From: an uncultured Methylococcus sp.
Lineage (GTDB): Bacteria; Pseudomonadota; Gammaproteobacteria; Methylococcales; Methylococcaceae
Reading direction: 5' to 3'
DNA: 44,088 bases
Assembly (NCBI GenBank): GCA_964419105.1
Contig: CAYQOJ010000004.1
Span: 10,993 to 55,080 of the forward strand
Both the position numbers and the translations under genes were made by a program. The notes under the pieces were generated by a model that did no database searches, was not told where the DNA came from, and saw nothing but the letters and a program-made list of their open reading frames with translations. Shown here in pieces: positions 8,507 to 26,775 of this stretch. Positions within the stretch are counted from its first letter, which is position 1, and every line of letters starts with the position of its first letter.

Positions 8507-8521
8507 AGGCGTTGTGTGGTC

Positions 8522-8698
8522 TTAGTCACACTCTCCACATGGGCACTGTGGGAATTCTCTATCTTGCTTAATTCGATTAGCAAGACGCTCTACCTTGAGA
8601 TAGGTATCAGGGCTAGCACCTCTAAAAGATACTACTTCACCATTTGCTAGCATGTGAGCAGCCTTAATAATTTTTTGTTCTAATGTTAGTGTAGTCAT
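8522..8698 (-). CDS. 58-aa hypothetical protein (C-terminal CPCGEC)
   Basis: Manual ORF MTTLTLEQKIIKAAHMLANGEVV... with an AAAGAAAGGTGG RBS. Confidence 0.55.
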   Translation of the reverse strand: MTTLTLEQKIIKAAHMLANGEVVSFRGASPDTYLKVERLANRIKQDREFPQCPCGECD

Positions 8699-8793: not shown

Positions 8794-8865
8794 ACAAAAC
8801 GGACATTTTCAAATATTTTTTTGTGATCTACATCATGCGAACATTTGTTCGAAAAGGCCCGATCC

Positions 8866-8886
8866 TGTGGATAACTCTGTGGAAAA
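8866..8886 (+). promoter_or_regulatory. Tandem DnaA-box-like pair
   Basis: TGTGGATAA at 8866-8874 and TGTGGAAAA at 8878-8886, with 12-bp phasing. TGTGGATAA is the reverse complement of TTATCCACA. Confidence 0.6.
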
Positions 8887-9001
8887 CTTCGTTATGTATT
8901 TGTTACAAAAACCCCTAAAAATAACACCTAAAATGTCCGACCCCCCTAATAGATTTATGGTAGAAAAAGAAAAGATAAATAAAAGAAAGGATAAATAAAA
9001 A

Positions 9002-9112
9002 ATGATTGATTTCAAGTTTTGTGAAATAGATTCAAACTATGTTCCAACAGTAGAGGTAGAAGGCGAAATCGCCTGCCAGTACTGCTGGGAAGCCTATGGT
9101 GAAATAAACTAG
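9002..9112 (+). CDS. 36-aa Cys-containing peptide
   Basis: MIDFKFCEIDSNYVPTVEVEGEIACQYCWEAYGEIN. It is a paralog of 7471-7590 with a similar A-rich leader and RBS. Confidence 0.45.
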   Translation: MIDFKFCEIDSNYVPTVEVEGEIACQYCWEAYGEIN

Positions 9113-9167
9113 GTTTCAAAAATTTTCAGCGTGTCGCTTGACAAACCAGGCGATTTGTGATCGGGTC

Positions 9168-9188
9168 CTGTGGATAACTTTGTGGATA
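9168..9188 (+). promoter_or_regulatory. Tandem DnaA-box-like pair
   Basis: TGTGGATAA at 9168-9176 and 9180-9188, plus a partial third copy TGTGGTAT at 9193-9200. Confidence 0.65.
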
Positions 9189-9307
9189 ACTTATGTGGTA
9201 TGAATCACAAAAATTTTTCTACGACACGCCCGAAAAACCCCCTAATTTGTCAGTCCCCTATGCTAGGATACAGTCATAAGAAAGTATCTTAGAAAGGATA
9301 ACTAAAA

Positions 9308-9529
9308 ATGAAAACAATTCTAAAGCCTCATACCCCTACAGGTATTGACTACCTTCCAGAGTCTCCAACCTCTGTTTGTGCTAACTGTGAAAAGTCAATT
9401 GAGCAATTCACTTGGTATGATGATGATTGCGGTTGGAGAACTGAGCGTGAGTGGCACGCTAAAACTTGGGTAGATGGCAAGTCTGCCAATGTAAAAGTTG
9501 CTCGTTTCCACTATGAGTGTGAAATGTAA
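9308..9529 (+). CDS. Small Cys-containing hypothetical protein
   Basis: 73-aa ORF with an AGAAAGGATAAC RBS. A promoter-like TGTCAGTCCCC...TAGGAT lies upstream (9247-9268). Confidence 0.6.
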   Translation: MKTILKPHTPTGIDYLPESPTSVCANCEKSIEQFTWYDDDCGWRTEREWHAKTWVDGKSANVKVARFHYECEM

Positions 9530-9544
9530 CAAAATGATAACAAT

Positions 9545-9586
9545 ACGGCGTGTCGTGTTGTAAATGTCAGCCCCCTATGATAGGTT
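9545..9586 (+). promoter_or_regulatory. Early promoter (family member)
   Basis: ACGGCGTGTCG (9545-9555), TTGTAA (9558-9563), 17-nt spacer ATGTCAGCCCCCTATGA, TAGGTT (9581-9586). Confidence 0.6.
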
Positions 9587-9620
9587 TATCCCATAAAGAA
9601 AAAGAAAGGAGTTCATAAAA

Positions 9621-9776
9621 ATGAACGAACTAAAATCAAAAACCTCAATCTGTGTATTCTGCTACTCAATCGTAGATGACTACATTTGCTGGACTTGTAG
9701 CGACTACAAAGGTGTAATGATAGTTTCTGAGGCTGAAAAATACCTCAAAGAAGATTTGACAGATTACCTAGTTTAG
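9621..9776 (+). CDS. 51-aa Cys-rich peptide
   Basis: An AAAGAAAGGAG RBS precedes MNELKSKTSICVFCYSIVDDYICWTCSDYKG... Confidence 0.5.
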   Translation: MNELKSKTSICVFCYSIVDDYICWTCSDYKGVMIVSEAEKYLKEDLTDYLV

Positions 9777-9814
9777 ACTAGACTAACAATAACAACGAAA
9801 GGAAAACTAATAAA

Positions 9815-9988
9815 ATGATGACTCGTAAAGACTATGTGGCTACCGCCAAAATTCTAAACAACTACAAAGATGAAATTGACTATCTAATAATTTCAGAAAT
9901 GGCTGATGAGTTTGCCGAAATGTTTGAGGCAGACAATCCAAACTTTGACTATCAAAAATTTATTGACGCAATCTTTGAGGAGAACTAA
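9815..9988 (+). CDS. 57-aa acidic hypothetical protein
   Basis: A GAAAGGAAAAC RBS precedes MMTRKDYVATAKILNNYKDEIDY... Confidence 0.5.
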   Translation: MMTRKDYVATAKILNNYKDEIDYLIISEMADEFAEMFEADNPNFDYQKFIDAIFEEN

Positions 9989-9990
9989 AA

Positions 9991-10122
9991 ATGATTTTTT
10001 ACAACGGATTCAATTTGCTAGTTGATTTGATTCTCTGCGGTGTGGTTGGTTATTTTGCCTATCGCTTTGGATTCTCTGACGGATTTCTAGAAGGTGAAAA
10101 GGAGAACGCTCCACCCTTCTAA
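9991..10122 (+). CDS. 43-aa single-TM peptide
   Basis: MIFYNGFNLLVDLILCGVVGYFAYRFGF..., starting 2 nt after the previous stop. Confidence 0.4.
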   Translation: MIFYNGFNLLVDLILCGVVGYFAYRFGFSDGFLEGEKENAPPF

Positions 10123-10182
10123 AAATTTTTCACAATCACGGCGTGTCGTCTTGACATTGTCCGTGATCTGTGGCGGGTCGCC

Positions 10183-10203
10183 TGTGGATAACTCTGTGAA
10201 TAA
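10183..10203 (+). promoter_or_regulatory. Tandem DnaA-box-like pair
   Basis: TGTGGATAA at 10183-10191 and TGTGAATAA at 10195-10203. ACGGCGTGTCG (10138-10148) and TTGACA (10151-10156) precede it. Confidence 0.6.
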
Positions 10204-10246
10204 CTTTACGTAGCATTAAGGAATTTTCGCAAAATTTCCCAGATCT

Positions 10247-10289
10247 ACGGCGTGTCGTCTTGCAAAATGTCTGAGGGGTGTGCTAGGAT
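10247..10289 (+). promoter_or_regulatory. Promoter giving a probable leaderless transcript
   Basis: ACGGCGTGTCG (10247-10257), TTGCAA (10260-10265), 18-nt spacer, TAGGAT (10284-10289). The ATG lies 6 nt downstream with no SD. Confidence 0.55.
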
Positions 10290-10295
10290 TGCAGT

Positions 10296-10469
10296 ATGAA
10301 GAAAGATAAGACTAAGAAGCATAGAGGGATTGCTAACCCTAGATACGCTAGGGAGATAGCAGAACTACGCCGTAGTGGTGCTTCTGGAGAACACTTAGAC
10401 AAGAGGACTAAGCGTGCTAGGACTAGGCAGTCTAGTGAGTATCGAGCAATTCAAGACTACTCAGAATAA
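10296..10469 (+). CDS. 57-aa highly basic protein (Arg/Lys-rich)
   Basis: MKKDKTKKHRGIANPRYAREIAELRRSGASGEHLDKRTKRARTRQ... It has leaderless geometry. Confidence 0.5.
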   Translation: MKKDKTKKHRGIANPRYAREIAELRRSGASGEHLDKRTKRARTRQSSEYRAIQDYSE

Positions 10470-10516
10470 ATGTCAGACCCCTGTGATAGTATCTAAGTAA
10501 TAGAAAGAGGATAAAG

Positions 10517-10660
10517 ATGACGAAAGAACTAACTACCGCTGAGATTGCAGATTTTATCAAGGCAGGTGCTAATCAAGTAATGACTAGACCCCTAACACCA
10601 CTTGAAGAGTCACTAATTGAATACACTGTTGTTCAGATGAAATACGAATTCTGGAAGTGA
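10517..10660 (+). CDS. 47-aa hypothetical protein
   Basis: An AGAAAGAGGATAAAG RBS precedes it, and a promoter-like ATGTCAGACCCC...TAGTAT lies upstream (10470-10492). Confidence 0.5.
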   Translation: MTKELTTAEIADFIKAGANQVMTRPLTPLEESLIEYTVVQMKYEFWK

Positions 10661-10893
10661 GCAACTACAACTGTTCAGATTGTCAGCGTCTAATCAGACC
10701 TGGCAACCTGTATGGGCACGGCCTTGACAATGTCTGTGGCAGGTGCTATGCTATTAGAGTACAACACCCCTCAGTAAGAAAGAAAGAGACTATGATAAAT
10801 TTCGATAACGTAATCAATGAAGAATCAATTGCTAAACTAACTAATGAAGAGGCAGAAGCCTTGCTAGCAATTCTAGAGAAAGCGGGATACTAA
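10657..10893 (+). CDS. Zinc-ribbon small protein
   Basis: GTG start overlaps the previous stop (GTGA). It carries CSDC...CGRC. Confidence 0.55.
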   Translation: MSNYNCSDCQRLIRPGNLYGHGLDNVCGRCYAIRVQHPSVRKKETMINFDNVINEESIAKLTNEEAEALLAILEKAGY

Positions 10894-10895
10894 TA

Positions 10896-11201
10896 ATGGG
10901 TTCACTACAAGCAATGGAATACAGAGAGTTAGCAGAAATGGGTTCTGTTACACTTGAGCAGTCTATTGAGTGGCACTTGCGTTCTAATCACTTCCCGCCA
11001 ATTCCTAAGTCAATGGTCCCTGTTTGCATAGAAGCGATTGAGTATGCCAATGAAGGCGATTGGGACAGAATGATTGGACTTCCTGAAGGCGTAGGCTACA
11101 AGGGACTAACGGCTGCACCTGTTCACGCTATCGTTGAGCAACACCACTTGGACGCTTGGGTTGAGCAGACAGATGAAGATTGGCTAATGTCTAACTCATA
11201 A
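10896..11201 (+). CDS. Hypothetical protein
   Basis: 101-aa ORF starting 2 nt after the previous stop. Confidence 0.6.
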   Translation: MGSLQAMEYRELAEMGSVTLEQSIEWHLRSNHFPPIPKSMVPVCIEAIEYANEGDWDRMIGLPEGVGYKGLTAAPVHAIVEQHHLDAWVEQTDEDWLMSNS

Positions 11202-11256
11202 GCCCCAGAATGTCAGACTCGCATGTTAGACTAACCCCATAAAGAAAGAAGGAAAA

Positions 11257-11364
11257 ATGGCTTTATTGTTTAGTCTCGAATACGAAGACCAATGTTATTG
11301 TGAATTGTGCTGTGCTGATGGCCACTGTGGTTGTGAAACCTGTAATGAACCATGCGAATGCTAG
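11257..11364 (+). CDS. 35-aa extremely Cys-rich peptide (10 Cys)
   Basis: An AAAGAAAGAAGGAAAAATG RBS precedes MALLFSLEYEDQCYCELCCADGHCGCETCNEPCEC. Confidence 0.5.
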   Translation: MALLFSLEYEDQCYCELCCADGHCGCETCNEPCEC

Positions 11365-11467
11365 TCACAACCTAATTCCGTTTTATTGCGATGCATGCGA
11401 TGAGATCGAATTTTTCTGTGATGAGTGTGGAGAAAATCTTTTAGATCTAGATGGCGTGTCAACTTGA
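11345..11467 (+). CDS. Possible 40-aa Cys-rich peptide overlapping the previous gene
   Basis: MNHANASHNLIPFYCDACDEIEFFCDECGENLLDLDGVST. No clear RBS. Confidence 0.3.
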   Translation: MNHANASHNLIPFYCDACDEIEFFCDECGENLLDLDGVST

Positions 11468-11525
11468 CAACCCCACTGAAAGGTGGTCGGGCACACTATT
11501 GTCAAATTGTCAAGTTACGAACTTT

Positions 11526-11585
11526 ACGGCGTGTCCCCAAATTTCCCAGTTTCAAATTGACATTGTCAGTCCCCTAGTGTAAAAT
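11526..11585 (+). promoter_or_regulatory. Early promoter (family member)
   Basis: ACGGCGTGTCC (11526-11536), TTTCCCAG motif, TTGACA (11557-11562), 17-nt spacer TTGTCAGTCCCCTAGTG, TAAAAT (11580-11585). Confidence 0.6.
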
Positions 11586-11614
11586 TGTAGTTAGAAAGAA
11601 AGGACAAATACCCT

Positions 11615-12334
11615 ATGTCACTAATCCGCTCTAAGGATAGAAAAGTAACTAACGCTGTTTCGCCTAATGGTAAAACTCCAACTATTGCTAACACGTTTGG
11701 TTTACCCTCTGGAAAAGCATACTCATGCCCTGGCGCTACTAGCGTATGCGAAAGTATCTGCTATGCAGGCAAGTTAGAAAAAGTCTACAAGGGTGTCAAA
11801 AATGTATTGCTAACAAATTGGGAGCAACTAAAAGACGCTAGCGAATACCAAATGGTAAACCTGTTGACTGAAATGATAAATGATTTCAGAAAAGATTGTG
11901 AAAAGCGTAATGCAGAAAAACTATTCCGTATCCATTGGGACGGAGATTTCTTCAACGAGACTTACACAAAAGCATGGAAGCAAGTTATCACTAACAATAC
12001 AGACATTCAATTTTGGGTTTACACTCGCAGCGATTTTGCGGTACCAATTCTAAAAGACATTCCTAATCTTGCATTGTATTACTCTACTGATAGCGCTAAC
12101 GTAAAAACTGCTATCTCATTGCGTACTAATCATGGTGTCAGATTGGCATACCTTGCAAAAAATTTCGCTATTGGACAGTCAGACCTCAAGGAAATGATTG
12201 GTAAGCCTGGAGCCAAGTGCCCTGAAAATAAAAAGGCTATTGCCCTTATTGACAAAGACGGCTCTGCCTGTGTAAAATGTAGTCTGTGTGTCTATCAAAA
12301 GGCAGACATTGTATTTTCGGCTAGTAAAAAGTAG
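11615..12334 (+). CDS. Hypothetical protein, possibly Gp88-like phage family
   Basis: 239 aa. The SCPGATSVCESICYAGK motif recalls the actinophage 'gene product 88' family. This rests on memory only. Confidence 0.55.
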   Translation: MSLIRSKDRKVTNAVSPNGKTPTIANTFGLPSGKAYSCPGATSVCESICYAGKLEKVYKGVKNVLLTNWEQLKDASEYQMVNLLTEMINDFRKDCEKRNAEKLFRIHWDGDFFNETYTKAWKQVITNNTDIQFWVYTRSDFAVPILKDIPNLALYYSTDSANVKTAISLRTNHGVRLAYLAKNFAIGQSDLKEMIGKPGAKCPENKKAIALIDKDGSACVKCSLCVYQKADIVFSASKK

Positions 12335-12347
12335 GGGGACTATGACC

Positions 12348-12367
12348 TGTGGATAACCTGTGGATAC
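12348..12367 (+). promoter_or_regulatory. Tandem DnaA-box-like pair
   Basis: TGTGGATAA at 12348-12356 and TGTGGATAC at 12359-12367, with 11-bp phasing. Confidence 0.6.
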
Positions 12368-12433
12368 CGCTAGCATTATTGGTAATCCTATTTCTCATAA
12401 ATCAATAGCGTTACCAAAATGTTACCAAACACT

Positions 12434-12475
12434 ACGGCGTGTCGGTTTGATAATGTCAGACCCTTATGGCATACT
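12434..12475 (+). promoter_or_regulatory. Early promoter (family member)
   Basis: ACGGCGTGTCG (12434-12444), TTGATA (12447-12452), 17-nt spacer ATGTCAGACCCTTATGG, CATACT (12470-12475). Confidence 0.6.
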
Positions 12476-12522
12476 TAGTAGTGTCAAAAGACAAAAACAA
12501 AAAACTATCGAAAGGAAGCAAA

Positions 12523-12675
12523 ATGAACAACACTCTAACTGTTGGCTCACAGTTCACCACTAAGAAGTCAGGCGTGGTTGGCATTATTCAGGAAGTTGTG
12601 GCAAATAAGACAGGTTCTTATCGTGTCCGTCTTGATGTTGCTGGCAAGCCTCGCTGGACAACTGTAAAGGCGTAA
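12523..12675 (+). CDS. 50-aa hypothetical protein
   Basis: The internal ATG lies after an AAAGGAAGCAAA RBS and downstream of the promoter. The longer track ORFs would begin inside or upstream of the promoter. Confidence 0.55.
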   Translation: MNNTLTVGSQFTTKKSGVVGIIQEVVANKTGSYRVRLDVAGKPRWTTVKA

Positions 12676-12726
12676 GCCTTACCCTCACCTGAGTATGTGA
12701 AGGCTAAACTGCTCACCCTTTAGGGG

Positions 12727-12755
12727 TTGATAATGTCAGCCACCTATGCTAAACT
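12727..12755 (+). promoter_or_regulatory. Early promoter (family member)
   Basis: TTGATA (12727-12732), spacer ATGTCAGCCACCTATGC, TAAACT (12750-12755). Confidence 0.6.
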
Positions 12756-12792
12756 AAATACCCTAACAACCCAAAAGAAAGAAGGAAAAACA

Positions 12793-13239
12793 ATGGCTAA
12801 GTCATTAGCAGTAAAAATCCCAACCGCATCTCTAATTGCTGAGGTTGAGGCTCAAATCGCAAAAGTAGAAAGCGACATTGAGAACTATGCTTCGTTGCGT
12901 AAGCAGTATGAGGCAGATGTAAAGCAGTATGACCTTGATGTTATTGCTCACGCTATCAAGGTGCTTTCAGACCCTAACAACATTGGAACTGATAGCAACT
13001 CTCTAATTCGTGTTTCTACTAGCCACTATCGTAATGGTGTGAGTGTTGAGTTTGATACTGATGCCCTCGCATTTCCAAAGCGACCAGATGAGCCATCTCG
13101 ACCAAACGAGAAGCAATACTATGGTCGTGAATACACCACTCGTCTTGATTTGCTAAAGAAGAACCTCAAGGTTCTCAAGATGACAACTCAAGAGGAAGTA
13201 AATGCTTCCACTTACAATTCTGTAATGGAATTGCTGTAA
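12793..13239 (+). CDS. Hypothetical coiled-coil protein
   Basis: The start at MAKSLAVKIP follows an AAAGAAAGAAGGAAAAAC RBS. The track start at 12727 is the -35 TTG. Confidence 0.6.
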   Translation: MAKSLAVKIPTASLIAEVEAQIAKVESDIENYASLRKQYEADVKQYDLDVIAHAIKVLSDPNNIGTDSNSLIRVSTSHYRNGVSVEFDTDALAFPKRPDEPSRPNEKQYYGREYTTRLDLLKKNLKVLKMTTQEEVNASTYNSVMELL

Positions 13240-13325
13240 GTTTCCTACACGCCTCTATTAGTGAGGCATACGGGAATAACACACCTGAGCAAGTGTCTAA
13301 ACTGCTCTCCCTCAAGGGGATCGAC

Positions 13326-13354
13326 TTGATAATGTCAGCCCCTTATGCTAAGAT
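13326..13354 (+). promoter_or_regulatory. Early promoter (family member)
   Basis: TTGATA (13326-13331), spacer ATGTCAGCCCCTTATGC, TAAGAT (13349-13354). Confidence 0.65.
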
Positions 13355-13381
13355 TGTTTTACCTAAAGAAAGGAACCCACA

Positions 13382-13951
13382 ATGGGAACAAGAGGAATAA
13401 CGGAAGTAATCAACAACGGACAGACAGTTGTTGCACAGTATGGACAATGGGACCACTACCCTAGCGGACAAGGTCTAACCGCTCTAAACTTTTTGGCCAA
13501 TCCCGCAAACATTGATAAGTTGCGTGCAGGCCTTGCTAATGTGTATGTGCCAAGTGATGAAGAGCGTGAGGCCATGGTTGCTTCATTCCATGATGGAAGT
13601 GGATGGATGAACATGGAGCAGGGTGACCGCTTTAGTAAGGCTTTCCCAAGTCTCACTAGGGATACAGGTGCAGGCATTCTGCAGGTAATTGCAGACTCTA
13701 CTGATAAGGTTCCACTAGTGTTAGAACCTGATTTCAAAGATGACAGACTATTTTGCGAGGGTATCTACACAATCAATCTAGATAATAACACATTCACTAC
13801 TGAATACAATCGATACAACGATGAAGAGACAGAGGATGTGCTTACCCTGACTTTTGATGAGTGTGCAACTATTTCACATGAAGAGTATTTGACAAGAGCC
13901 AAGTGCGGTGTCTACCAATACTATCAAACACAGGAAACTGCTAACGCATAA
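13382..13951 (+). CDS. Hypothetical protein
   Basis: 189-aa ORF with an AAAGAAAGGAAC RBS. Confidence 0.65.
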   Translation: MGTRGITEVINNGQTVVAQYGQWDHYPSGQGLTALNFLANPANIDKLRAGLANVYVPSDEEREAMVASFHDGSGWMNMEQGDRFSKAFPSLTRDTGAGILQVIADSTDKVPLVLEPDFKDDRLFCEGIYTINLDNNTFTTEYNRYNDEETEDVLTLTFDECATISHEEYLTRAKCGVYQYYQTQETANA

Positions 13952-13995
13952 TGTCAGACGTGCATGCTAAACTAAAAGAAACGAAAGGACTATCA

Positions 13996-14196
13996 ATGGA
14001 TATCAAATACCCAGAGATTGAAGTACAATTGACTGGTAACGACGGAAACGCATTCTCTATCATGGGTGCAGTGTCTAAGGCATTGCGACGTGGTGGCGCT
14101 AGCAAAGAAGAGATTGAACTCTACATGACTGAGTCAATGTCTGGAGACTACAATAATCTACTACGTGTTGCAATGAGGTGGGTAAATGTCAACTAA
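13996..14196 (+). CDS. 66-aa hypothetical protein
   Basis: The internal ATG follows a GAAACGAAAGGAC RBS and lies downstream of ATGTCAGACG...TAAACT (13951-13973). Confidence 0.55.
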   Translation: MDIKYPEIEVQLTGNDGNAFSIMGAVSKALRRGGASKEEIELYMTESMSGDYNNLLRVAMRWVNVN

Positions 14197-14368
14197 TCTA
14201 AACATTGAAGGCTTCGAAAAGATTCTAGAAATTCTTGAGTCTAAAATCAAAGAAGCGGACCGTATGATGAAAGCAGCGGAAGCGGACGGTAATAGTGACT
14301 ATGACTATCACCAAGGCAGGCTAGATGCATATCAACACATTCTAGCAAACATCCAAAAACTACCATAA
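14186..14368 (+). CDS. 60-aa helical hypothetical protein
   Basis: The ORF overlaps the previous gene by 11 nt. Confidence 0.5.
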   Translation: MSTNLNIEGFEKILEILESKIKEADRMMKAAEADGNSDYDYHQGRLDAYQHILANIQKLP

Positions 14369-14370
14369 AA

Positions 14371-14390
14371 TTCTGGTAGGGGTACCAGAA
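14371..14390 (+). terminator. Perfect 8-bp hairpin TTCTGGTA-GGGG-TACCAGAA
   Basis: It starts 2 nt after the stop at 14368. A second 9-bp inverted repeat follows (CTGGCCAGG...CCTGGCCAC, about 14391-14428). There is no clear T-run. Confidence 0.45.
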
Positions 14391-14598
14391 CTGGCCAGGT
14401 TCTTATCCTTTCTTTCTTTCCTGGCCACGCTCCTGGGCATGAGCGATACAAAAGGCCCACTTAGCATACTTGACAAATGGATCAAAATGGGGTCGGGCAC
14501 ACTTTTTTGATTTTGTCAAGTGTTTACGATGTGATTTATGACACCCCCAAAATTTTTCCCAGATCGTGGCAAAACGGACATTTTTATTCATCTTGGTG

Positions 14599-14627
14599 TT
14601 GACAATGTCAGACCCCTCCTGTATGAT
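14599..14627 (+). promoter_or_regulatory. Early promoter (family member)
   Basis: TTGACA (14599-14604), spacer ATGTCAGACCCCTCCTG, TATGAT (14622-14627). Confidence 0.65.
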
Positions 14628-14658
14628 TATCTTATCAACAAAACGAAAGGAAAAACAC

Positions 14659-15666
14659 ATGGCACACATGTTAGAACAGTCTGCTACTGGCGAGACTGCA
14701 TTCGCATCATTGCGTGAGCCTGCATGGCATGGCTTAGGCACTGTATTCAATGAGGAAGTGACAACTGGCGAAATGCTAAAGTTGGCACACCTAGACAACT
14801 GGAATGTTCGTCTTGAGGACGTATCTATCCCAGACACATTCAAGTCTGACAAGAATTATTTCTTTGTTACTCGCACTAACCCATTCGACAAGTCACAGAA
14901 CGACGTGCTTGGCGTAGTTGGTGAGCGCTATCACGTGTTGCAGAATGAGGACCTCTTCTCATTCGGAGATAACATTCTTGATGGTGGAGGTCGTTGGGAG
15001 ACTGCTGGCTCTATCAAGGGCGGACGTGTAGTCTTTGGCTCTATCGCTCTTGAGCGTGAGACAGTTCTTGACCCTTCTGGCGTGTCTGATAAGGTGAACA
15101 CTTATCTTCTTATCAACACATCACACGACGGTTCGATTGCTATTCAAGCATCTATCACACCTGTTCGTGTTGTTTGCCAAAACACTTTGAACCTTGCTCT
15201 TGGTAAGGGTAATCGTGGAGTAAAGCAGACTTTCAAAATTCGTCACACTCAGACTGCTAACGGAAAAGTTCAAGCAGCACGTGAGGCTCTTGGCCTTGCG
15301 AACAAATACATGGACGAATTCGACAAGTTGGCACAAGCCATGATTCAGCAAGAAGTCAGCGCTAAGCAATTCAATGACATCATTCTTGCATCTTACCCAA
15401 AGCCAGAAAAAGACGCTAAGGGTTCAATCAAGAAGTGGGAAAACAAGGTTGACATCATCAACTCAATCTACACAGGCCCTACTAACAACATGATTGCTGG
15501 CACTGCTTGGGGTGCATTCAACGCTCTAACTGAGCGCTTGGATTGGTATCGCTCAGGACGTGGCGGTGACAACGAATCTATTCTTGCATCTGCAAGTGGA
15601 TTTGACCCTGCTATCAACGCAGAGAAGAATCGCCTTCTCAAAGTTGTGCAAGGCGTTCTCGCATAA
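14659..15666 (+). CDS. DUF932/TIGR03299-like phage/plasmid protein
   Basis: The start at MAHMLEQSATGETAFASLREPAWHGLGTVF follows an AACGAAAGGAAAAAC RBS. The N-terminal xPAWHGLG signature recalls the DUF932 family. The track start at 14566 lies upstream of the promoter. Confidence 0.6.
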   Translation: MAHMLEQSATGETAFASLREPAWHGLGTVFNEEVTTGEMLKLAHLDNWNVRLEDVSIPDTFKSDKNYFFVTRTNPFDKSQNDVLGVVGERYHVLQNEDLFSFGDNILDGGGRWETAGSIKGGRVVFGSIALERETVLDPSGVSDKVNTYLLINTSHDGSIAIQASITPVRVVCQNTLNLALGKGNRGVKQTFKIRHTQTANGKVQAAREALGLANKYMDEFDKLAQAMIQQEVSAKQFNDIILASYPKPEKDAKGSIKKWENKVDIINSIYTGPTNNMIAGTAWGAFNALTERLDWYRSGRGGDNESILASASGFDPAINAEKNRLLKVVQGVLA

Positions 15667-15846
15667 CGATAAATTGCGATACACGTGCTGGGCATCACAC
15701 TAAACTGCCCAAACATTTTTTCTAAAACACGGCGTGTCGAGTTGACAAAATGCGATCTTGGGGGCCGAGTTGTGTTTATGTAATCTTATATAGATCAAAT
15801 ACTCATTACGAAGTGATTACGAATTTCCCAAATTTTTCCCAGATTC

Positions 15847-15875
15847 TTGACTTTGTCAGACCCTATCTGTATACT
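15847..15875 (+). promoter_or_regulatory. Early promoter (family member)
   Basis: TTGACT (15847-15852), spacer TTGTCAGACCCTATCTG, TATACT (15870-15875). Confidence 0.65.
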
Positions 15876-15901
15876 TAGATACAAGTAGGAAGGAACCCCA
15901 A

Positions 15902-16102
15902 ATGGATGGCAAGGCTACAGTTACTATTGTTCTTGAGTATGATTTAGATAATCTTGCAGATACCCTCGCAATTGAAGAGACTCTAAGCGATGAAGAAATC
16001 TATGACATGATTGAAGATTATACCTATGAGGACTTGATAGATTTGATGCGTGGTGATAGACTTAGGTATTGGTCAGAAGTAGTAATAGAAAGGAAGAAAT
16101 AA
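15902..16102 (+). CDS. Small very acidic protein
   Basis: 66 aa, rich in Asp/Glu, with a GTAGGAAGGAAC RBS. Confidence 0.6.
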   Translation: MDGKATVTIVLEYDLDNLADTLAIEETLSDEEIYDMIEDYTYEDLIDLMRGDRLRYWSEVVIERKK

Positions 16103-16263
16103 TGGCAACATACAATGTGAAGGTAGTTGTAGAATACGAGTATGAGGTTGAGGCTGACTCACAAGAGGAAGCAGAAAAAGAAGGCTGGAACTACGAAGAC
16201 TATTCCTACACTGGACAAGTCTATGAAATTGAAGTTGAAGAACTAGAAAGTGATGAAGACTAA
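16102..16263 (+). CDS. Small very acidic protein
   Basis: MATYNVKVVVEYEYEVEADSQEEAEKEGWNYEDY..ELESDED. The ATG overlaps the previous TAA. Confidence 0.55.
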   Translation: MATYNVKVVVEYEYEVEADSQEEAEKEGWNYEDYSYTGQVYEIEVEELESDED

Positions 16264-16472
16264 TGGAAACCCTATTACCTGTTATGCGCTCTAAACTTGC
16301 TGAGTTTGAGTCTGATATCGAAGAACTGTCTGTAGAAATGGAATTGCTTGATATAAATTCTAAAGACTATGCTGAACTAGAGTATGAGTATCAGTATCTG
16401 TCTGCTCAGGCTACTATCACTAGATATTACTTGTCAGTGGCTGATGGTACTATTGATGCAAAGAAAGGATAA
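16263..16472 (+). CDS. Small acidic protein
   Basis: 69-aa ORF with a TAATG overlap. Confidence 0.55.
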   Translation: METLLPVMRSKLAEFESDIEELSVEMELLDINSKDYAELEYEYQYLSAQATITRYYLSVADGTIDAKKG

Positions 16473-16474
16473 GT

Positions 16475-16666
16475 ATGTCTATATATATTGCTAATGCCAA
16501 TGGAGATTGGTGGGAGATTGAGAACTCTATCAGTCCCGTCTGGATTTTGAATACTAATACACTTAGTGATGAACTGCAGGAGCAGGTCTATGATGAACTA
16601 GGTGCAGATAAGTTTGAGGACTTTATCAAGGAGCATGGCAAGCAGGTGCTGCTAAATGTCAAATAA
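16475..16666 (+). CDS. Small acidic protein
   Basis: 63-aa ORF starting 2 nt after the previous stop. Confidence 0.55.
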   Translation: MSIYIANANGDWWEIENSISPVWILNTNTLSDELQEQVYDELGADKFEDFIKEHGKQVLLNVK

Positions 16667-16886
16667 GATATTCGTAGATAAGAAGCCGTCTGTGTCGTCA
16701 ACAACATGGACCAGGATTTTTCATAACTCTGGAGTAGAGGTATATGAGGCTGATAAGTACGAGGATTATTATAAGGTGGTGAGCAAGTCAGATCGCCCTA
16801 AGTATTTCTTTGGGGAGACTGCTTGGATGGACACGCAGAGATATGCTGTTGACAAGTCAGACTTTTCTGCGTATAATATATTTTAG
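16656..16886 (+). CDS. Hypothetical protein
   Basis: 76-aa ORF overlapping the previous gene by 11 nt. Confidence 0.55.
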   Translation: MSNKIFVDKKPSVSSTTWTRIFHNSGVEVYEADKYEDYYKVVSKSDRPKYFFGETAWMDTQRYAVDKSDFSAYNIF

Positions 16887-16913
16887 AAAGTAACCCTAAA
16901 GAAAGAGGATAAA

Positions 16914-17456
16914 ATGCATACACTGCAACACATTGCTGTCACTGCAGATAGCAAGGAAGAGGCCTTTGATAAGGTCAAGTCATCATTCGAAGCCATGTAT
17001 TCTGAGACTGAGGGTCTTGGTGGCTGGAGCGACTGGTACGTAGTTGGTGGGGGACGTTGGAATAGCAACCCTGACAACCAGTATAACGATAACCAAGCAT
17101 GGAATGACGTTATCTATTTTGGAGATGACGAATCTAAATTCTACGACATCATCAAGAGCGCTATGAAGTGTCGTGCAGACGAAGTCAAATCAATGTATGA
17201 GCGTGTTGACCTAGCCAAATTTGAGCAATATGCTAAATCATTTATGGAATCATCAGGAGAAGTAACAGACCAAGAACGGTTTGACATGAACTTCTACTAC
17301 ATCACGTCTATCTCTAATATCATTAGGGGTCATTGGAACCAAGATAGTTTCTTTTATGATTTGGAGCATTACTCTACCTACCCTGCCTATGTTGTCGAAG
17401 AGATTGACAAGGGCAACAAAAACTGGTATCTTGTACCTGTAGACTTTCACTACTAG
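16914..17456 (+). CDS. Hypothetical protein
   Basis: 180-aa ORF with an AAAGAAAGAGGATAAA RBS. Confidence 0.65.
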   Translation: MHTLQHIAVTADSKEEAFDKVKSSFEAMYSETEGLGGWSDWYVVGGGRWNSNPDNQYNDNQAWNDVIYFGDDESKFYDIIKSAMKCRADEVKSMYERVDLAKFEQYAKSFMESSGEVTDQERFDMNFYYITSISNIIRGHWNQDSFFYDLEHYSTYPAYVVEEIDKGNKNWYLVPVDFHY

Positions 17457-17465
17457 GAGGCAATT

Positions 17466-17660
17466 GTGGAAACCCAACACGAACTAGTCAAACTAATTGA
17501 ACAAGCATGGGCTGAGTACGAAGAGATTCATGCTGAGGAGAAAGAGGGTGGCTACAGCGATGCTATGCTCTCTATGGAACGCACACATGCTGAGGGATAT
17601 GCAGAAGGCCTTGCATCTGCCTATTCTATGATTTATGGTAAGGAGTACGACAATGAGTAG
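17466..17660 (+). CDS. Small acidic protein
   Basis: GTG start preceded by a TAGGAGG RBS. Confidence 0.5.
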   Translation: METQHELVKLIEQAWAEYEEIHAEEKEGGYSDAMLSMERTHAEGYAEGLASAYSMIYGKEYDNE

Positions 17661-18078
17661 TTTCTACACACAGGGTGCATGGGTAGAAACATTCAAGCCC
17701 ATTATCAATCCTAACAATGATTGGGGAAGCGATGCTACCTATTCAGCATTTGAGACCTATGGTGAAGACTATGAGGTTGTGAAGAATGCTAATCCTAATA
17801 ACATTTGGACTGAGGTAGACGGTGATGAGGGTACCTACATTATTGCAGGCTGGCATTTTGTAAACCGTATTCAATACTTCATTACTGAGGTCCCGTGGAC
17901 TGATGAGTGGACTGAAGTGCCTACTTGGTCATACCGCCAATGTGACTGCACGGAAGAGACTGGAGACTACGACCCTGAGTGTATTGAGCAATGCAACGAG
18001 GGTAGTCATGACATTCCAGTTGACACAGTAGCAGACCTCAAGGTATTATATGGAGATGAAGCAAATGTTATCGCCTAG
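17653..18078 (+). CDS. Hypothetical protein
   Basis: The start at MSSFYTQGAW follows a TAAGGAG RBS. Confidence 0.6.
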   Translation: MSSFYTQGAWVETFKPIINPNNDWGSDATYSAFETYGEDYEVVKNANPNNIWTEVDGDEGTYIIAGWHFVNRIQYFITEVPWTDEWTEVPTWSYRQCDCTEETGDYDPECIEQCNEGSHDIPVDTVADLKVLYGDEANVIA

Positions 18079-18232
18079 TCCATATACGATTGATGAGTTG
18101 GTTACTACTATCTATGAAGACAATCTAAATCATTTTGAATTCATGGAGAATATGGGTGGTGGGGATTGTGATTGCAATCTACACATCACTATGAATACTA
18201 TTGGAGATGTAATGGGTTGGAAGGTTGACTAA
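18050..18232 (+). CDS. Small acidic protein
   Basis: 60-aa ORF. The start is uncertain; alternative ATGs lie at 18056 and 18065. Confidence 0.45.
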   Translation: MEMKQMLSPSPYTIDELVTTIYEDNLNHFEFMENMGGGDCDCNLHITMNTIGDVMGWKVD

Positions 18233-18315
18233 TGGAATTTATAGTTGGAATTGTTATTGTGCTTTGGGTATTGGGTGCCTTGACGGGTACATGGACGAAT
18301 GAGAGCAAGAGGTGA
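18232..18315 (+). CDS. Possible 27-aa single-TM peptide
   Basis: MEFIVGIVIVLWVLGALTGTWTNESKR. Start and stop overlap the neighbouring genes. Confidence 0.3.
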   Translation: MEFIVGIVIVLWVLGALTGTWTNESKR

Positions 18316-18680
18316 TGATAGCACTACGTAACAAGAATGCAGGCAAGACTGCTATTGATTGGGACCTAAACATTTTTATACCTGAGTCATACAATGAGGA
18401 AACGGAGGAATACTATTTCGATCCGTCCGCTTGGGTGATTCATGTATACCGCTTTATGGGTAACACACACATAGAGCATGACAAACCGCTAGCACTAACT
18501 GCGGGGGAAATTCAGAGTCTTATGCTAAATGGCGATGAATACTTCAAGGATGAGACAGATGTGTGGTATGGCCTTGTTGGATTCAGAGAGAAGTATTGGC
18601 ACAAGATGTCTGACCGTCTAAAACTATACTTTGATTCATTACCAAAGTATGAGGAAGACCTACAACTAAATAACAATTGA
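18315..18680 (+). CDS. Hypothetical protein
   Basis: About 121 aa. The ATG at 18315 sits in a TGATG overlap; a GTG at 18312 is also possible. Confidence 0.6.
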   Translation: MIALRNKNAGKTAIDWDLNIFIPESYNEETEEYYFDPSAWVIHVYRFMGNTHIEHDKPLALTAGEIQSLMLNGDEYFKDETDVWYGLVGFREKYWHKMSDRLKLYFDSLPKYEEDLQLNNN

Positions 18681-18714
18681 ATAATCAATCATTTATAACC
18701 TATAGGAGGCCATA

Positions 18715-18927
18715 ATGGCAAAGAAGACAGCACCAAAGCGTACAAGCAAGCCACTAAGCAAGAAGGCATCTGCAGCACGCAAGAAGACACCAATCGTTCC
18801 ATACCTTGAGTCATGGGACACTCGCTATGGCAAGTCAGAGCGTATCGTACTTCGACAGGGAGGCAAGTTTGTTGACAACACTTCCCTATCGTCACTAAAG
18901 CGTGGAGCAAGGGTTACTTCACGCTAA
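18715..18927 (+). CDS. Small basic (Lys-rich N-terminus) protein
   Basis: A TAGGAGG RBS precedes MAKKTAPKRTSKPLSKKASAARKKTP... Confidence 0.6.
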   Translation: MAKKTAPKRTSKPLSKKASAARKKTPIVPYLESWDTRYGKSERIVLRQGGKFVDNTSLSSLKRGARVTSR

Positions 18928-18939
18928 ATAAACAGAGAT

Positions 18940-18979
18940 GGGGCGCAGGGTCTTTATCCTACTTTCTACCTTGCGCCCC
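18940..18979 (+). terminator. GC-rich stem-loop
   Basis: GGGGCGCAGGG (18940-18950) pairs with CCTTGCGCCCC (18969-18979) with one mismatch. It begins 13 nt after the stop at 18927. Confidence 0.55.
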
Positions 18980-19005
18980 TCTCACTTATCTGATAAACTA
19001 GGAGT

Positions 19006-19206
19006 ATGGGACTAATGAGACGACATAGAATAACAGAAGAAGAGCGTGTGGCTAAGAAGTTTAGCGACCTGCTTTCAGACTTACGGCTAGACCTTGACAA
19101 GGTTGGAATGTATTTCGCACGCATTGTTCCAACAGTTACCTACAACCGCCTAATTATTATGGCTGAAGCAGCAGAAGCAGAAAAGGAGAATGACGGTGCC
19201 TTCTAA
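19006..19206 (+). CDS. Hypothetical small protein
   Basis: 66-aa ORF with a CTAGGAGT RBS. An alternative start lies at 19015. Confidence 0.5.
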   Translation: MGLMRRHRITEEERVAKKFSDLLSDLRLDLDKVGMYFARIVPTVTYNRLIIMAEAAEAEKENDGAF

Positions 19207-19468
19207 CGAGACAGCATACGCAAACAAATGTTCCATACTAGCAAAACTTTGGATAGACTTTCGTGAGGACGAAGAGTTCATCGACTTCATCGAATACAAT
19301 GATTTGGGACTGCCACTAGCATTCGCAATTGCGGAGGGTATTGTAAGTGACACCCCTCTATCTAATGCTATGATTACAGAGACATGGGATTTGTTCATGG
19401 CAGGCCTAGAGATTACAGATTCAGGATTTGACACATTGGAAGACGTACTAGGATTTAGGGGAGAGTAA
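19190..19468 (+). CDS. Hypothetical acidic protein
   Basis: 92-aa ORF with a 17-nt overlap and an AAAAGGAGAATG context. Confidence 0.55.
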   Translation: MTVPSNETAYANKCSILAKLWIDFREDEEFIDFIEYNDLGLPLAFAIAEGIVSDTPLSNAMITETWDLFMAGLEITDSGFDTLEDVLGFRGE

Positions 19469-19623
19469 TGAAAGTCTATGAAGTAGAGATCATCCATGAG
19501 CCAACAGGTAAGTACATGAATTTTTCATATGCATCTGATTCAGAAGAGAACCTAGTCTATCAAGAGATCCTGGCTGATCTTTCAATTTCAGTGTTTGATA
19601 CTGGAGAGACTGAAGACGAATAA
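19468..19623 (+). CDS. 51-aa acidic peptide
   Basis: TAATG overlap, then MKVYEVEIIHEPTGKYMNFSYASDSEENLV... An imperfect hairpin follows (CACATCC...GGATGTG, about 19628-19668). Confidence 0.45.
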   Translation: MKVYEVEIIHEPTGKYMNFSYASDSEENLVYQEILADLSISVFDTGETEDE

Positions 19624-19958
19624 GATAAGCACACATCCCTGATTTGACAATTGGGGATGGATGTGCCCGATGGTCCAAACATTGTATCAAACATCATTAC
19701 GAAAGTCAAGTATTTTTCCCAGAATTTTTGATCAAACACCAAATCCGAGTATCCAAATTTTGATCCAAATTGTATTACGAAGGACTATAAAAAATCGCTG
19801 AAAGTTTTTATCAAATTGGCATTACGAAGGATATCCAAATTTGCAGATTGTACAACATATCTGCCATATTGTCAAGTCCCAAAATGGGGATATGACATAT
19901 TTGGCAGGGTATAGTAAGGTAACCCTTATTGATTCATATATAGTGATATCATAGATAT

Positions 19959-20210
19959 ATGAGTCCAAGACATTTCTATAGATCACAGTATCCAAAACAA
20001 GCAGCATTAGATGATATAGGACTACATAATGCATTTGTAGCATTTACTCATATGATAGGTTTGAAGAGATTCTTTTCTTATATACCGTTGGAAGTTGCAG
20101 ATCAGATGTATCCTAATTTGTTCCCGCTGGCAATCACAGATAATCCTGTTAAGGATCCCGCAGGGGAAATGCCAGGGGATCAAATCATTCCTGATACCAA
20201 ATCCCTATAG
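19959..20210 (+). CDS. Doubtful ORF inside the iteron region
   Basis: 83-aa ORF with no recognisable RBS or promoter. It may be non-coding. Confidence 0.25.
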   Translation: MSPRHFYRSQYPKQAALDDIGLHNAFVAFTHMIGLKRFFSYIPLEVADQMYPNLFPLAITDNPVKDPAGEMPGDQIIPDTKSL

Positions 20211-20566
20211 TATAAATACCCATTACGAACCCTTACTTAAGTTTCCCAGATTATCCTTAAGTAACGAATAATATTACTTAAGTTTGTCCAAATTTGCATA
20301 TCAAATTGTTAAATTTTTATAGCATTATTGGACAAAATTTCCTATAAAAATACTTGACAAATCAGGATATTTGTGCTATGCGGATATGCCCAATTTGGAT
20401 ATTTGGATATGAGGATTTGGGATTTGACAATTTGGATAATTTGTGGTAGGGGGGGCTGCTCCCAAAAAATGATTACGAAGCCTGTTAATCATGCGCTCCA
20501 TCATCCACTATCCTCCACTTCACTCCACTTTAACTTTATTTAGATTATCAAACAGTAATATCTTTC

Positions 20567-20587
20567 TGTGGATAAACCTGTGGATAA
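20567..20587 (+). promoter_or_regulatory. Tandem DnaA-box-like pair
   Basis: TGTGGATAA at 20567-20575 and 20579-20587, directly abutting three TATCCAA(A/C) iterons. Confidence 0.65.
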
Positions 20588-20682
20588 CTATCCAAATCAG
20601 GCATATCCAACTATCCAAATTTGGTATTTTGGCAGGGTATGTCATTTGACAACCTATTCCCCTATAGGCTATACTTGAGACT

Positions 20683-20940
20683 ATGCAGACTATCCCAGAA
20701 CATCGGACAAACAACCTATTCTTGAGATTCATAGCAAATCAGATATGTTCTCCTATAGGGCATTACTTTCTTACTAAGGTGTTTCGTATTTACTTTAAGT
20801 ATGAGAAGTCTTATGAGGAGATTGATTCCTTTGTCCCCCCACGTTTTGACCATATCCGTATGCGTCTGTATATGAAGATCTATGACATTACAAACATCCC
20901 ATATGACAAATGGGGAACCTTCTACAGATTGGAATTATAG
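20683..20940 (+). CDS. Hypothetical protein
   Basis: 85-aa ORF following a TTGACA-like element at 20645-20650. Confidence 0.45.
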   Translation: MQTIPEHRTNNLFLRFIANQICSPIGHYFLTKVFRIYFKYEKSYEEIDSFVPPRFDHIRMRLYMKIYDITNIPYDKWGTFYRLEL

Positions 20941-21173
20941 TGGAATACTGGTCCTATATCCTAGCAGCAGTTGGCATTACAGGCATATTCTTTGTAGGCA
21001 AAAAGACAGCATGGGGTTGGCTCATCCTATTTGTCAATGAGTGCCTGTGGATAACTTATGCTCTCTTGACCAAGCAGTATGGCTTCTTGATTATGGCTAT
21101 CGCCTATATGATTGTATATCTCAAGAGTTACTTTTCTTGGACTTCCGAATCAAAGAATTCACCAAACGGATAA
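20940..21173 (+). CDS. Small multi-pass membrane protein
   Basis: GTG overlaps the previous TAG. VEYWSYILAAVGITGIFFVGKKTAWGWLILFVNECLWITYALL... has 3 predicted TM helices. It contains a single TGTGGATAA at 21046-21054. Confidence 0.5.
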   Translation: MEYWSYILAAVGITGIFFVGKKTAWGWLILFVNECLWITYALLTKQYGFLIMAIAYMIVYLKSYFSWTSESKNSPNG

Positions 21174-26751: not shown

Positions 26752-26775
26752 CAAGTATTGTGGTATAATCTATTT

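Follow-up and report, generated by a model that had tools for sequence, protein, structure and literature searches.

The window analysed here, a 44,088-bp stretch of DNA from an uncultured freshwater phage with phage-like proteins, carries five same-strand pairs of DnaA boxes in its early region. These sites exist as exact paired boxes under strong selection, are intergenic, and are conserved throughout the phage family as well as in unrelated phages. On balance, we lean towards reading the five pairs as authentic high-affinity boxes of the type of R1 in oriC (the replication origin of Escherichia coli), doublets that would dock two host DnaA molecules cooperatively and serve as cis-elements of early control. 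Four of the pairs lie in intergenic regions of the rightward early gene block that are short and rich in promoters, and the fifth lies in a conserved, repeat-rich, partly A+T-rich non-coding hub that ends this block. In the proposed mechanism, two host DnaA molecules would dock cooperatively on the head-to-tail doublet with its 3-bp gap, and the bound DnaA would modulate early promoters, by occlusion or as a roadblock where a box overlaps or follows the promoter and as an upstream effector at others, so that the start of infection would be tied to the replication and growth state of the host. DnaA at the hub may in addition assist in opening or organising the DNA for replication. We infer every one of these functional consequences.

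Paired boxes in the window and in related phages

The 9-mer TGTGGATAA is the reverse complement of the DnaA-box consensus TTATCCACA. Eight exact copies were found, all on the + strand (8866, 9169, 9181, 10183, 12348, 20567, 20579 and 21046) and all within 8.8–21.1 kb of the window. A preliminary description of this DNA had given this count and strand correctly, but had placed two copies at 9168 and 9180 instead of 9169 and 9181; it had also assumed 0.3 copies by chance, whereas dinucleotide-preserving shuffles gave about 0.7 (mean 0.72, maximum 3, none of 100 shuffles reaching eight). The one-mismatch partners that it had listed 11–12 bp downstream on the same strand were recovered by sequence search at 8878 (TGTGGAAAA), 10195 (TGTGAATAA) and 12359 (TGTGGATAC); read in the orientation of TTATCCACA, the one-mismatch variants of the window are TTTTCCACA, TTATTCACA and GTATCCACA. 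Together, the boxes form five same-strand pairs with start-to-start distances of 12, 12, 12, 11 and 12 bp, the gap between paired boxes being 3 bp in four pairs and 2 bp in the remaining one, plus one single box:

8864–8887, + strand: pair 1, CCTGTGGATAAC-TC-TGTGGAAAAC (boxes 8866–8874 and 8878–8886)
9167–9190, + strand: pair 2, CCTGTGGATAAC-TT-TGTGGATAAC (boxes 9169–9177 and 9181–9189)
10181–10204, + strand: pair 3, CCTGTGGATAAC-TC-TGTGAATAAC (boxes 10183–10191 and 10195–10203)
12346–12368, + strand: pair 4, CCTGTGGATAAC-C-TGTGGATAC (boxes 12348–12356 and 12359–12367, 11-bp spacing)
20565–20588, + strand: pair 5 ('class O'), TCTGTGGATAA-ACC-TGTGGATAAC (boxes 20567–20575 and 20579–20587, both perfect)
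21044–21056, + strand: single box in CCTGTGGATAACT, a 13-nt copy identical to 20577–20589

The single box at 21046 is located inside the open reading frame (ORF) 20910–21173, a fragment resembling the nicotinamide mononucleotide (NMN) transporter PnuC.

GP88-like proteins 70–77% identical to that of the window are encoded by at least 593 IMG/VR contigs, the longest of which reach about 115 kb, and the window therefore stands for a large freshwater phage family. Selection on the boxes was evaluated in the 80 best GP88-anchored loci (L120–L199, 1.29 Mb), which were chosen irrespective of the motif in order to avoid ascertainment bias. These 80 relatives contain 335 copies of the exact 9-mer, 18.5 times the 18 that a first-order Markov model predicts, and it is the second most over-represented 9-mer of these regions after GGCGTGTCG. 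None of its single-mismatch variants rose above 2.8-fold, and the variant TTGTCCACA was depleted (0.3-fold). Exact boxes on the same strand were most often 12 bp apart (n = 50), followed by 11 bp (n = 12) and 13 bp (n = 8). About 70% of the boxes are intergenic. Relative to the GP88-like gene they are concentrated at −7 to −1 kb and at +7 to +9 kb, and their family-wide density is about 2.6 per 10 kb of early region.

The imperfect boxes and the flanks are also of the DnaA type. In 17 of 17 one-mismatch partner boxes, the deviation was at position 5, 7 or 9 of TGTGGATAA (corresponding to 5, 3 or 1 of TTATCCACA), and in 15 of the 17 at position 5 or 3 of TTATCCACA; the classical DnaA-box consensus TT(A/T)TNCACA is degenerate at positions 3 and 5. 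Family boxes are preceded by CC in 122 of 277 cases and followed by C in 204 of 277. Including its flanks, R1 of E. coli oriC is the 12-mer CCTGTGGATAAC, identical to the phage box, and R4, which lies on the other strand (ACTGTGGATAACTC / CTGTGGATAAC), shares the C...C flanks. Sequence evidence thus supports the view that the sites act like genuine DnaA boxes and are strongly selected. The likeness to oriC does not extend to its overall layout: R1 and R4 stand alone, point in opposite directions and are separated by about 180 bp with arrays of low-affinity sites, whereas the boxes of the window are doublets at 12 bp, and no array of low-affinity boxes was detectable around them.

What is constant across the family is the internal architecture of the doublet. 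The uniform orientation described earlier applies to the window (eight of eight boxes) but not to the family, in which 190 boxes are on the + strand and 145 on the − strand. Because the internal architecture is conserved, unlike geometry and orientation, cooperative docking of two DnaA molecules is the favoured mode of action.

The binding protein and the host

Megablast of the early and late regions of the window against 50,697 phage records gave no nucleotide match. At motif level, the pattern CCTGTGGATAAC-NN-TGTGGA was present in more than 117 IMG/VR contigs among the matches listed, with GC contents of 0.27–0.70; about 25 of these contigs are relatives of the window and the remainder are unrelated, and the unconstrained part of the second box was again ATAAC in most of them. 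Among isolated phages, 462 records carry doublets or longer arrays. The T5-like phage HildyBeyeler has TGTGGATAA-GTC-TGTGGATAA and TGTTAATAA-GTC-TGTGGATAA in a 1.07-kb non-coding gap, and doublets were also found in T7-like Klebsiella and Shigella phages and in Lactococcus phages of the 949 group. The 30 kb examined of Streptomyces phage Gilson contain three boxes, all in one 1.76-kb non-coding gap, and show no protein-level similarity to the window, the likeness being at motif level only. Microbacterium phage Pepe25 (GC 0.65) carries CCTGTGGATAAC-TC-TGTGGAATT about 270 bp from its left end, and a 5.6-kb microvirus has five tandem boxes directly after its rep gene.

Since the motif is common to unrelated viruses, some of them nearly without coding capacity, its simplest explanation is a site for a universal host protein, and we infer that DnaA is the binder of the doublets. 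Between the two options named in the preliminary description, host DnaA or a phage protein of the same specificity, recruitment of host DnaA is favoured by the 18.5-fold enrichment, the degeneracy pattern, the R1-type flanks and the unrelated carriers. Pfam scans of 92 ORFs of the window, which cover 44 kb of a genome of about 110 kb, detected no phage protein with DnaA domain IV. A tblastn search of about 3 Mb (the window and the loci of its relatives) with an E. coli domain IV query gave no match either, which is weak evidence; the missing domain IV ORF is likewise weak evidence, because most of the genome lies outside the window.

In a rival reading, which we regard as quite unlikely, the asymmetric CCTGTGGATAAC would resemble a DnaA box by convergence and would be bound by a different protein, encoded by the phage or by the host, either as a monomer or as a tandem dimer. 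Such a binder could be modelled on L5 gp71, which acts on the 'stoperators' of cluster A mycobacteriophages, or on response regulators of the OmpR family that act on 11–12-bp direct repeats. Like the boxes, stoperators are asymmetric 12–13-bp sites distributed through the non-coding DNA of actinophages; all eight window boxes are co-oriented with early transcription, as stoperators are, and a GP88-like early gene is common to the window and cluster A mycobacteriophages. The selected motif is, moreover, a strict 12-mer with barely enriched one-mismatch variants, and the phages retain TTATCCACA even though the probable host phylum prefers TTGTCCACA at oriC. On the other hand, the phage boxes differ from stoperators in sequence, are paired at 12 bp and vary in orientation across the family, while their degeneracy pattern and flanks fit DnaA boxes. 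The identical doublet is found in phages with no genes in common and with very different hosts and GC contents, including Microviridae with only a handful of proteins. Neither a candidate binder nor a cognate repressor of the stoperator type was found among the window ORFs.

The window encodes a canonical WhiB protein (34343–34636, − strand; cysteines C-X29-C-X2-C-X5-C, GVWGG motif), and the closest cultured relatives of its GP88-family and DUF932 proteins are found in phages of Mycobacterium, Streptomyces, Microbacterium, Arthrobacter and Gordonia. Its complete promoters have the form TTGAC(A/T)-17/18-TAGGAT, and at two promoters an ATG lies 6–7 nt past the −10 element (10284–10298, TAGGAT...ATG; 20670–20685, TATACT...ATG), so that the mRNAs starting there are probably leaderless. 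Leaderless mRNAs are frequent in Actinobacteria. WhiB, the actinophage homologues, the promoter type with its leaderless starts and a perfect Cheo/SOS-type box together suggest an actinobacterial host. An initial guess of a cyanophage, made from 2OG-Fe(II) oxygenase and carbamoyltransferase genes, was dropped once WhiB and the actinophage homologues emerged. The bins of metagenome-assembled genomes are uninformative on the host, because contigs of the family were spread over bins of Bacteroidota, Actinomycetota, Cyanobacteria, Planctomycetota, Proteobacteria and others. The phage is present in river, lake and aquaculture metagenomes.

The high-affinity DnaA box of Mycobacterium tuberculosis and Streptomyces coelicolor is TTGTCCACA (PMC4285127). 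The caution voiced earlier that actinobacteria prefer this form stands, as the host is probably actinobacterial and TTGTCCACA occurs at 0.3-fold of expectation in the family. Cultured Streptomyces and Microbacterium phages nonetheless carry TTATCCACA pairs, and tandem TTGTCCACA pairs are practically absent from the 50,697 phage records; phages therefore show no visible adaptation of the box to actinobacterial hosts. That actinophages keep the TTATCCACA form while model actinobacterial origins use TTGTCCACA is a puzzle with three possible solutions: either actinobacterial DnaA binds the TTATCCACA doublet sufficiently, or the origin of the host is itself of the TTATCCACA type, or the binder is a different protein.

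Besides WhiB, the proteins of the window include a collagen-like tail fibre and several products of auxiliary metabolic genes. Pfam matches elsewhere in the window were GroES (Cpn10), glutaredoxin, thioredoxin, a pyrimidine-dimer glycosylase and SNase, together with three 2OG-Fe(II) oxygenases, a carbamoyltransferase, an APS-kinase-like protein and an M23 peptidase. A tRNA-Arg (TCT) at 26679–26752 was the only RNA family found in the window with Rfam.

Pairs 1 to 4 and the early promoters

The intergenic regions of the early block are built from three recurring motifs, namely (A)CGGCGTGTCG units fused to a −35 element, TGTGA-N6-TCACA palindromes and the DnaA doublets. Pairs 1–4 adjoin other motifs of regulator type, GGCGTGTCG, TGTGA-N6-TCACA and an SOS-type box. 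The features around pairs 1–3 are the following:

8838–8851, no strand assigned: perfect palindrome CGAACATTTGTTCG of the Cheo/SOS type, similar to a LexA box; it lies 14 bp upstream of pair 1
9126–9143, + strand: CAGCGTGTCG-C-TTGACA unit with a G+C-rich −10 place (TCGGGT); pair 2 starts 25 nt past the hexamer
9194–9209, no strand assigned: CRP-type palindrome TGTGGTATGAATCACA with one mismatch, starting 13 bp after box 9181
10138–10156, + strand: ACGGCGTGTCG-TC-TTGACA unit without a −10 element; pair 3 begins 26 nt past the hexamer
10247–10298, + strand: complete promoter ACGGCGTGTCG-TC-TTGCAA-18-TAGGAT about 45 bp downstream of pair 3; the ATG of ORF 10296–10469 lies 6 nt past the −10 element

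Pair 1 sits in the divergent control region that separates the leftward from the rightward early genes, and the unit nearest to it (8790) is a good promoter, TTGACT-17-TAGGAT, that is on the opposite strand and points leftward. Pair 4 directly follows the stop codon of the GP88-like gene, about 70 bp upstream of the unit at 12436, which has its own −10 element. Four pairs had been described as lying just downstream of an ACGGCGTGTCG-TTGACA unit lacking a −10 element, which is true only of the pairs at 9169 and 10183, and a supposed degenerate box at 9193 in fact starts at 9194 and is the left arm of the TGTGG-N6-TCACA palindrome 9194–9209. The arrangement of pairs 2 and 3, in which a doublet starts 23–26 nt past a TTGACA with a G+C-rich −10 place, recurs in at least nine loci of relatives, and pairs 3, 4 and 5 are located 45–100 bp upstream of complete promoters. 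In some relatives (L091, L058 and L030), the −10 place between TTGACA and the doublet is taken up by short hairpins that are rich in G+C and have GAAA or TTCG tetraloops, which suggests an RNA-level function or terminator-like structures without a U-tract. The possibility that the boxes themselves provide a −10 or −35 element was discarded on sequence inspection, as GATAAC, ATAACT and TAACTT are wrongly spaced from TTGACA.

Such placements are familiar from DnaA acting as a transcription factor, as in autoregulation of dnaA, stimulation of lambda pR and the Bacillus subtilis DnaA regulon. At DnaA-regulated promoters, the boxes likewise lie within, just downstream or tens of bp upstream of promoters of the sigma-70/sigma-A type; the phage doublets are more regular, but have no fixed geometry and flip orientation among relatives.

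Both companion motifs are concentrated near the boxes. GGCGTGTCG has seven exact copies in the window (0.09 expected) and is the top 9-mer of the 80 relatives (297 copies, 319-fold), in which 84 of the 297 copies lie within 60 bp of a box (about 6 expected). Perfect CRP/GlxR-type TGTGA-N6-TCACA palindromes number 338 in the early regions of the same relatives against about 1.5 expected, and 62 of them are near boxes (about 7 expected); in the window, all palindromes of this type have one mismatch (8393–8408, 8515–8530 and 9194–9209). In the window, (A)CGGCGTGTCG is fused 2–3 nt upstream of a −35 element at 8504 (−), 8790 (−), 9129, 9230 (−), 9547, 10140, 10249, 12436 and 15731, and it is possibly an UP-like element or the site of an activator.

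The Cheo/SOS box CGAACATTTGTTCG, of Gram-positive/actinobacterial type, occurs once in the window. It likewise stands beside a doublet in L113 and in L121, the doublet being inverted in L121, and its enrichment in the family is modest (32 copies, 15 expected). GTTAC/GTTAT direct repeats with 11-bp spacing (for instance GTTACCAAAATGTTAC) frequently flank doublets, both in the window (8887–8905 and 12398–12420) and in L036, L077, L118, L119, L021 and the Gilson locus L215 (4023–4050); they presumably resemble the GTnAC-n6-GTnAC sites of actinobacterial GlnR, MtrA and AfsQ1.

A number of observations weigh against the doublets being DnaA-loaded elements of early control. The orientation of the boxes relative to transcription is not conserved, and in L077, L036 and L102 the doublet of the intergenic site flanked by homologues of ORFs 9815 and 10296 is inverted. 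Offsets between boxes and promoters were scattered over 612 promoter-like sites, with small peaks only at +6 and −53 to −65, so that a fixed operator geometry was rejected; these scattered offsets argue against one simple operator mechanism. Pairs other than pair 5 are poorly conserved in position, pair 4 being almost without counterpart among the 80 relatives. The TTGTCCACA box of the model actinobacteria is depleted in the family although the host is probably actinobacterial. No replication genes were found near the boxes in searches of the window ORFs. Finally, easily melted DNA adjoins pair 5 only, and the most A+T-rich DNA of the window (5447–5487) is 3.4 kb from the nearest box.

A search for RNA evidence yielded one wastewater run of RNA type, in which only 5% of the words matched, from a relative 90–95% alike, and which gave no usable transcript ends. 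Apparent 'joints' at the pairs in this run were short local matches to the doublets of other strains and not real junctions.

The mixed orientation would be of no consequence if the boxes were a sink, titrating DnaA off oriC in the manner of datA as the phage DNA replicates and thereby shutting down host initiation. The boxes are exact and of the highest-affinity type, and they are spread family-wide at the density given above. We nevertheless hold such a sink to be very improbable, as there are only 8–11 good boxes in the 44 kb, confined to regulatory intergenic DNA and precisely paired, with at most two good boxes per site over 12 kb, and a sink would have no need of co-localisation with promoters. 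At datA, the boxes are clustered, four to five or more within about 1 kb.

Pair 5 and the non-coding hub

Pair 5 has the most conserved position of all pairs in the family, and its surroundings contain the following elements:

20500–20566, + strand: three (A/C)TCCACT repeats with an exact 10-bp period (20504, 20514 and 20524), then a 38-bp A+T-rich stretch
20379–20411 and 20602–20634, no strand assigned: inverted 33-nt arms, 82% complementary, which carry ATTTGGATA/TATCCAAAT and bracket the CTCCACT repeats and pair 5
20646–20685, + strand: promoter TTGACA-18-TATACT, 58 bp downstream of pair 5; the ATG of ORF 20683–20940 lies 7 nt past the −10 element

The A+T-rich stretch before pair 5 includes CAGTAATAT, whose counterpart in relatives is ATCAGTAAGAT. 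In 29 unique loci, pair 5 is preceded by three CTCCACT repeats with a 10-bp period, about 38 bp of A+T-rich DNA and ATCAGTAAGAT, always in the same orientation. The earlier statement that this pair abuts repeats thus holds, the repeats being CTCCACT in three copies with ATTTGGATA copies on either side. Pair 5 lies between the inverted arms and outside the arms themselves, and the other pairs have no such arms. Downstream, a third DnaA box exactly fills the 17-nt spacer of a TTGACA/TAnnnT promoter in several relatives; the promoter spacer is a classical position for a repressor.

This constancy raises the question of a replication origin. It is possible, though we think it unlikely, that pair 5 with its CTCCACT repeats, A+T-rich spacer and ATTTGGATA inverted repeats is an origin or the site of an origin co-factor, in which DnaA anchored on the doublet would help to unwind the A+T-rich DNA 5' of TGTGGATAA, as at oriC and in the iteron plasmids P1 and F; the remaining pairs would be accessory. 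Besides the position and orientation, fixed in 33 relatives, and the iteron-like repeats on either side, the polarity is that of oriC, with A+T-rich DNA 5' of TGTGGATAA both at pair 5 and at E. coli R1, where it is the DNA unwinding element. The 41-mer next to pair 5 (20527–20567) is among the least stable 0.74% of all 41-mers of the window, pairs 1–4 being at the 13–30% level. In unrelated phage contigs, arrays often adjoin genes of the replication module (HTH_36, VapE, RusA and VRR-NUC), and in the microvirus they follow rep. On the other hand, neither initiator nor other replication genes were found nearby, and in comparison with the iteron origins of P1, F and pSC101 the window has repeats but no Rep-like family among its ORFs. 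The region doubles as an ordinary promoter region of ORF 20683, with the third box of relatives in the spacer of that promoter. The cumulative GC skew has no turning point at 20.5 kb and rises to about 28 kb, and far more A+T-rich DNA exists at 5447–5487, in a divergent intergenic region; with −32.5 kcal/mol against a mean of −51.3, this A+T/(TA)n-like 41-mer is by far the least stable of the window and is another candidate unwinding element.

Bacterial origins with a basal unwinding system (BUS) have DnaA boxes in tandem, equally oriented and no more than 3 bp apart, then a short G+C-rich spacer, at least three DnaA-trios (3'-GAT-5') and, beyond these, an A+T-rich unwinding element (Richardson 2016; Pelliciari 2021, PMC8287927). 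The window pairs share the orientation and the gap, and pair 5 has A+T-rich DNA on the side on which trios and an unwinding element would lie. However, the best trio frame at pair 5, CAG TAA TAT followed by the 5-nt spacer CTTTC, is off consensus and unconvincing, and the spacer is not G+C-rich; relatives read TAT CAG TAA GAT followed by TTATC, with the central A kept. Pairs 1–4 have nothing comparable, and the DNA on that side of them is G+C-rich. In BUS, the better of the two boxes is usually the one distal to the trios, whereas both are perfect at pair 5.

The first-step-transfer or injection-stop region of T5 was reportedly treated by Heusterspreute in 1987. In the injection-stop (iss) region of T5-like phages, pairs of DnaA boxes are 'separated by 3 bp', and Davison proposed that the injection-stop signal tethers the DNA to membrane-associated DnaA, a function that is hypothesised (bioRxiv 10.1101/866236). 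Tandem pairs of the T5 type in phages are thus already described, and the window family is a widespread additional carrier. As in the window, the T5 boxes lie on the same strand 3 bp apart, mix consensus with one-mismatch copies, form several pairs per genome and occupy non-coding, repeat- and palindrome-rich DNA of the earliest-expressed region. They differ in that the T5 pairs are embedded in the long inverted repeats IRC/IRD inside the terminal repeat, whereas the window pairs stand singly beside promoters. The host of T5 is E. coli and that of the window phage is probably actinobacterial, and two-step injection is not known for the window phage.

We consider it decidedly unlikely that the doublets act on the incoming or linear genome itself, by tethering first-entering or end-proximal DNA to membrane-associated DnaA or by protecting or organising the ends. 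Besides the T5-like geometry and setting, an end-proximal location is frequent in cultured phages with defined ends: doublets lie about 260–380 bp from the end in Microbacterium Gillianvirus phages, within 150 bp in T7-like Klebsiella and Shigella phages, in the last 100 bp of Arthrobacter phage Seahorse, at 96–127 in Vibrio phage R10Z, in the last 750 bp of Microcystis phage Me-ZS1, in the left terminal repeats of T5-like phages, and 5–7 kb from the right end in Streptomyces BE-type phages. In four river metagenomes, read depth was about 9–13 from about 7.5–8.4 kb to 20.57 kb and about 5–7 outside, and contig breaks fell at 20567, 20580 and 20596, within and just past pair 5; this step of about 1.5–2-fold would fit a collapsed terminal repeat ending at pair 5, the T5 pairs being near the inner end of the left terminal repeat. 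It is, however, equally explained by strains sharing the early module, since runs X1, X2 and X4 hold a SNP-variant strain (SNP, single-nucleotide polymorphism). Ends of IMG/VR contigs do not cluster at pair 5, and the T5 model is itself a hypothesis. The co-occurring strains in X1, X2 and X4 differ from the window by one SNP every few hundred bp and lack 83 bp at 18232–18314, and those in X1 and X4 also lack 46 bp at 19797–19842. Many loose ends were seen at 8355–8443, with a very deep junction 8375/8426 (depth 620 in run X3).

Returning to the doublets as DnaA-loading elements of early control, we tentatively propose a wider reading, which may well prove too broad. In it, CCTGTGGATAAC doublets would be a general, largely unrecognised cross-phylum phage device that loads host DnaA on the incoming genome and is kept as TTATCCACA even in TTGTCCACA-type hosts, and the window family would read several host-state regulators (DnaA and the LexA-, CRP- and GlnR/MtrA-like sites). 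The device would have its place in the non-coding DNA of the first-expressed region, often near a genome end, and would extend from microviruses through T5/T7-like phages to actinophages; that T5-like, T7-like, Lactococcus, Streptomyces, Microbacterium and Microviridae genomes all carry this element suggests a common strategy. If host DnaA does dock on the doublets, a very abundant freshwater phage family would couple the first minutes of infection to the replication initiator of its host, plausibly sensing growth state in slow-growing hosts. Cultured carriers such as T5 on E. coli, Pepe25 on Microbacterium foliorum and Gilson on Streptomyces griseofuscus allow direct testing.

Pair 5 belongs to a gene-poor 1.1-kb region (19750–20630) that is full of repeats and contains several TTGACA-N17 promoter-like sites. 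Seven of the eight window copies of ATTTGGATA/TATCCAAAT lie in this region, in both orientations, as do five of the eight copies of ATTACGAA, all of which are on the + strand. A further repeat, TTTCCCAGAT, has four + strand copies (10235, 14555, 15835 and 20242; 0.1 expected), each directly upstream of a promoter unit or gene start.

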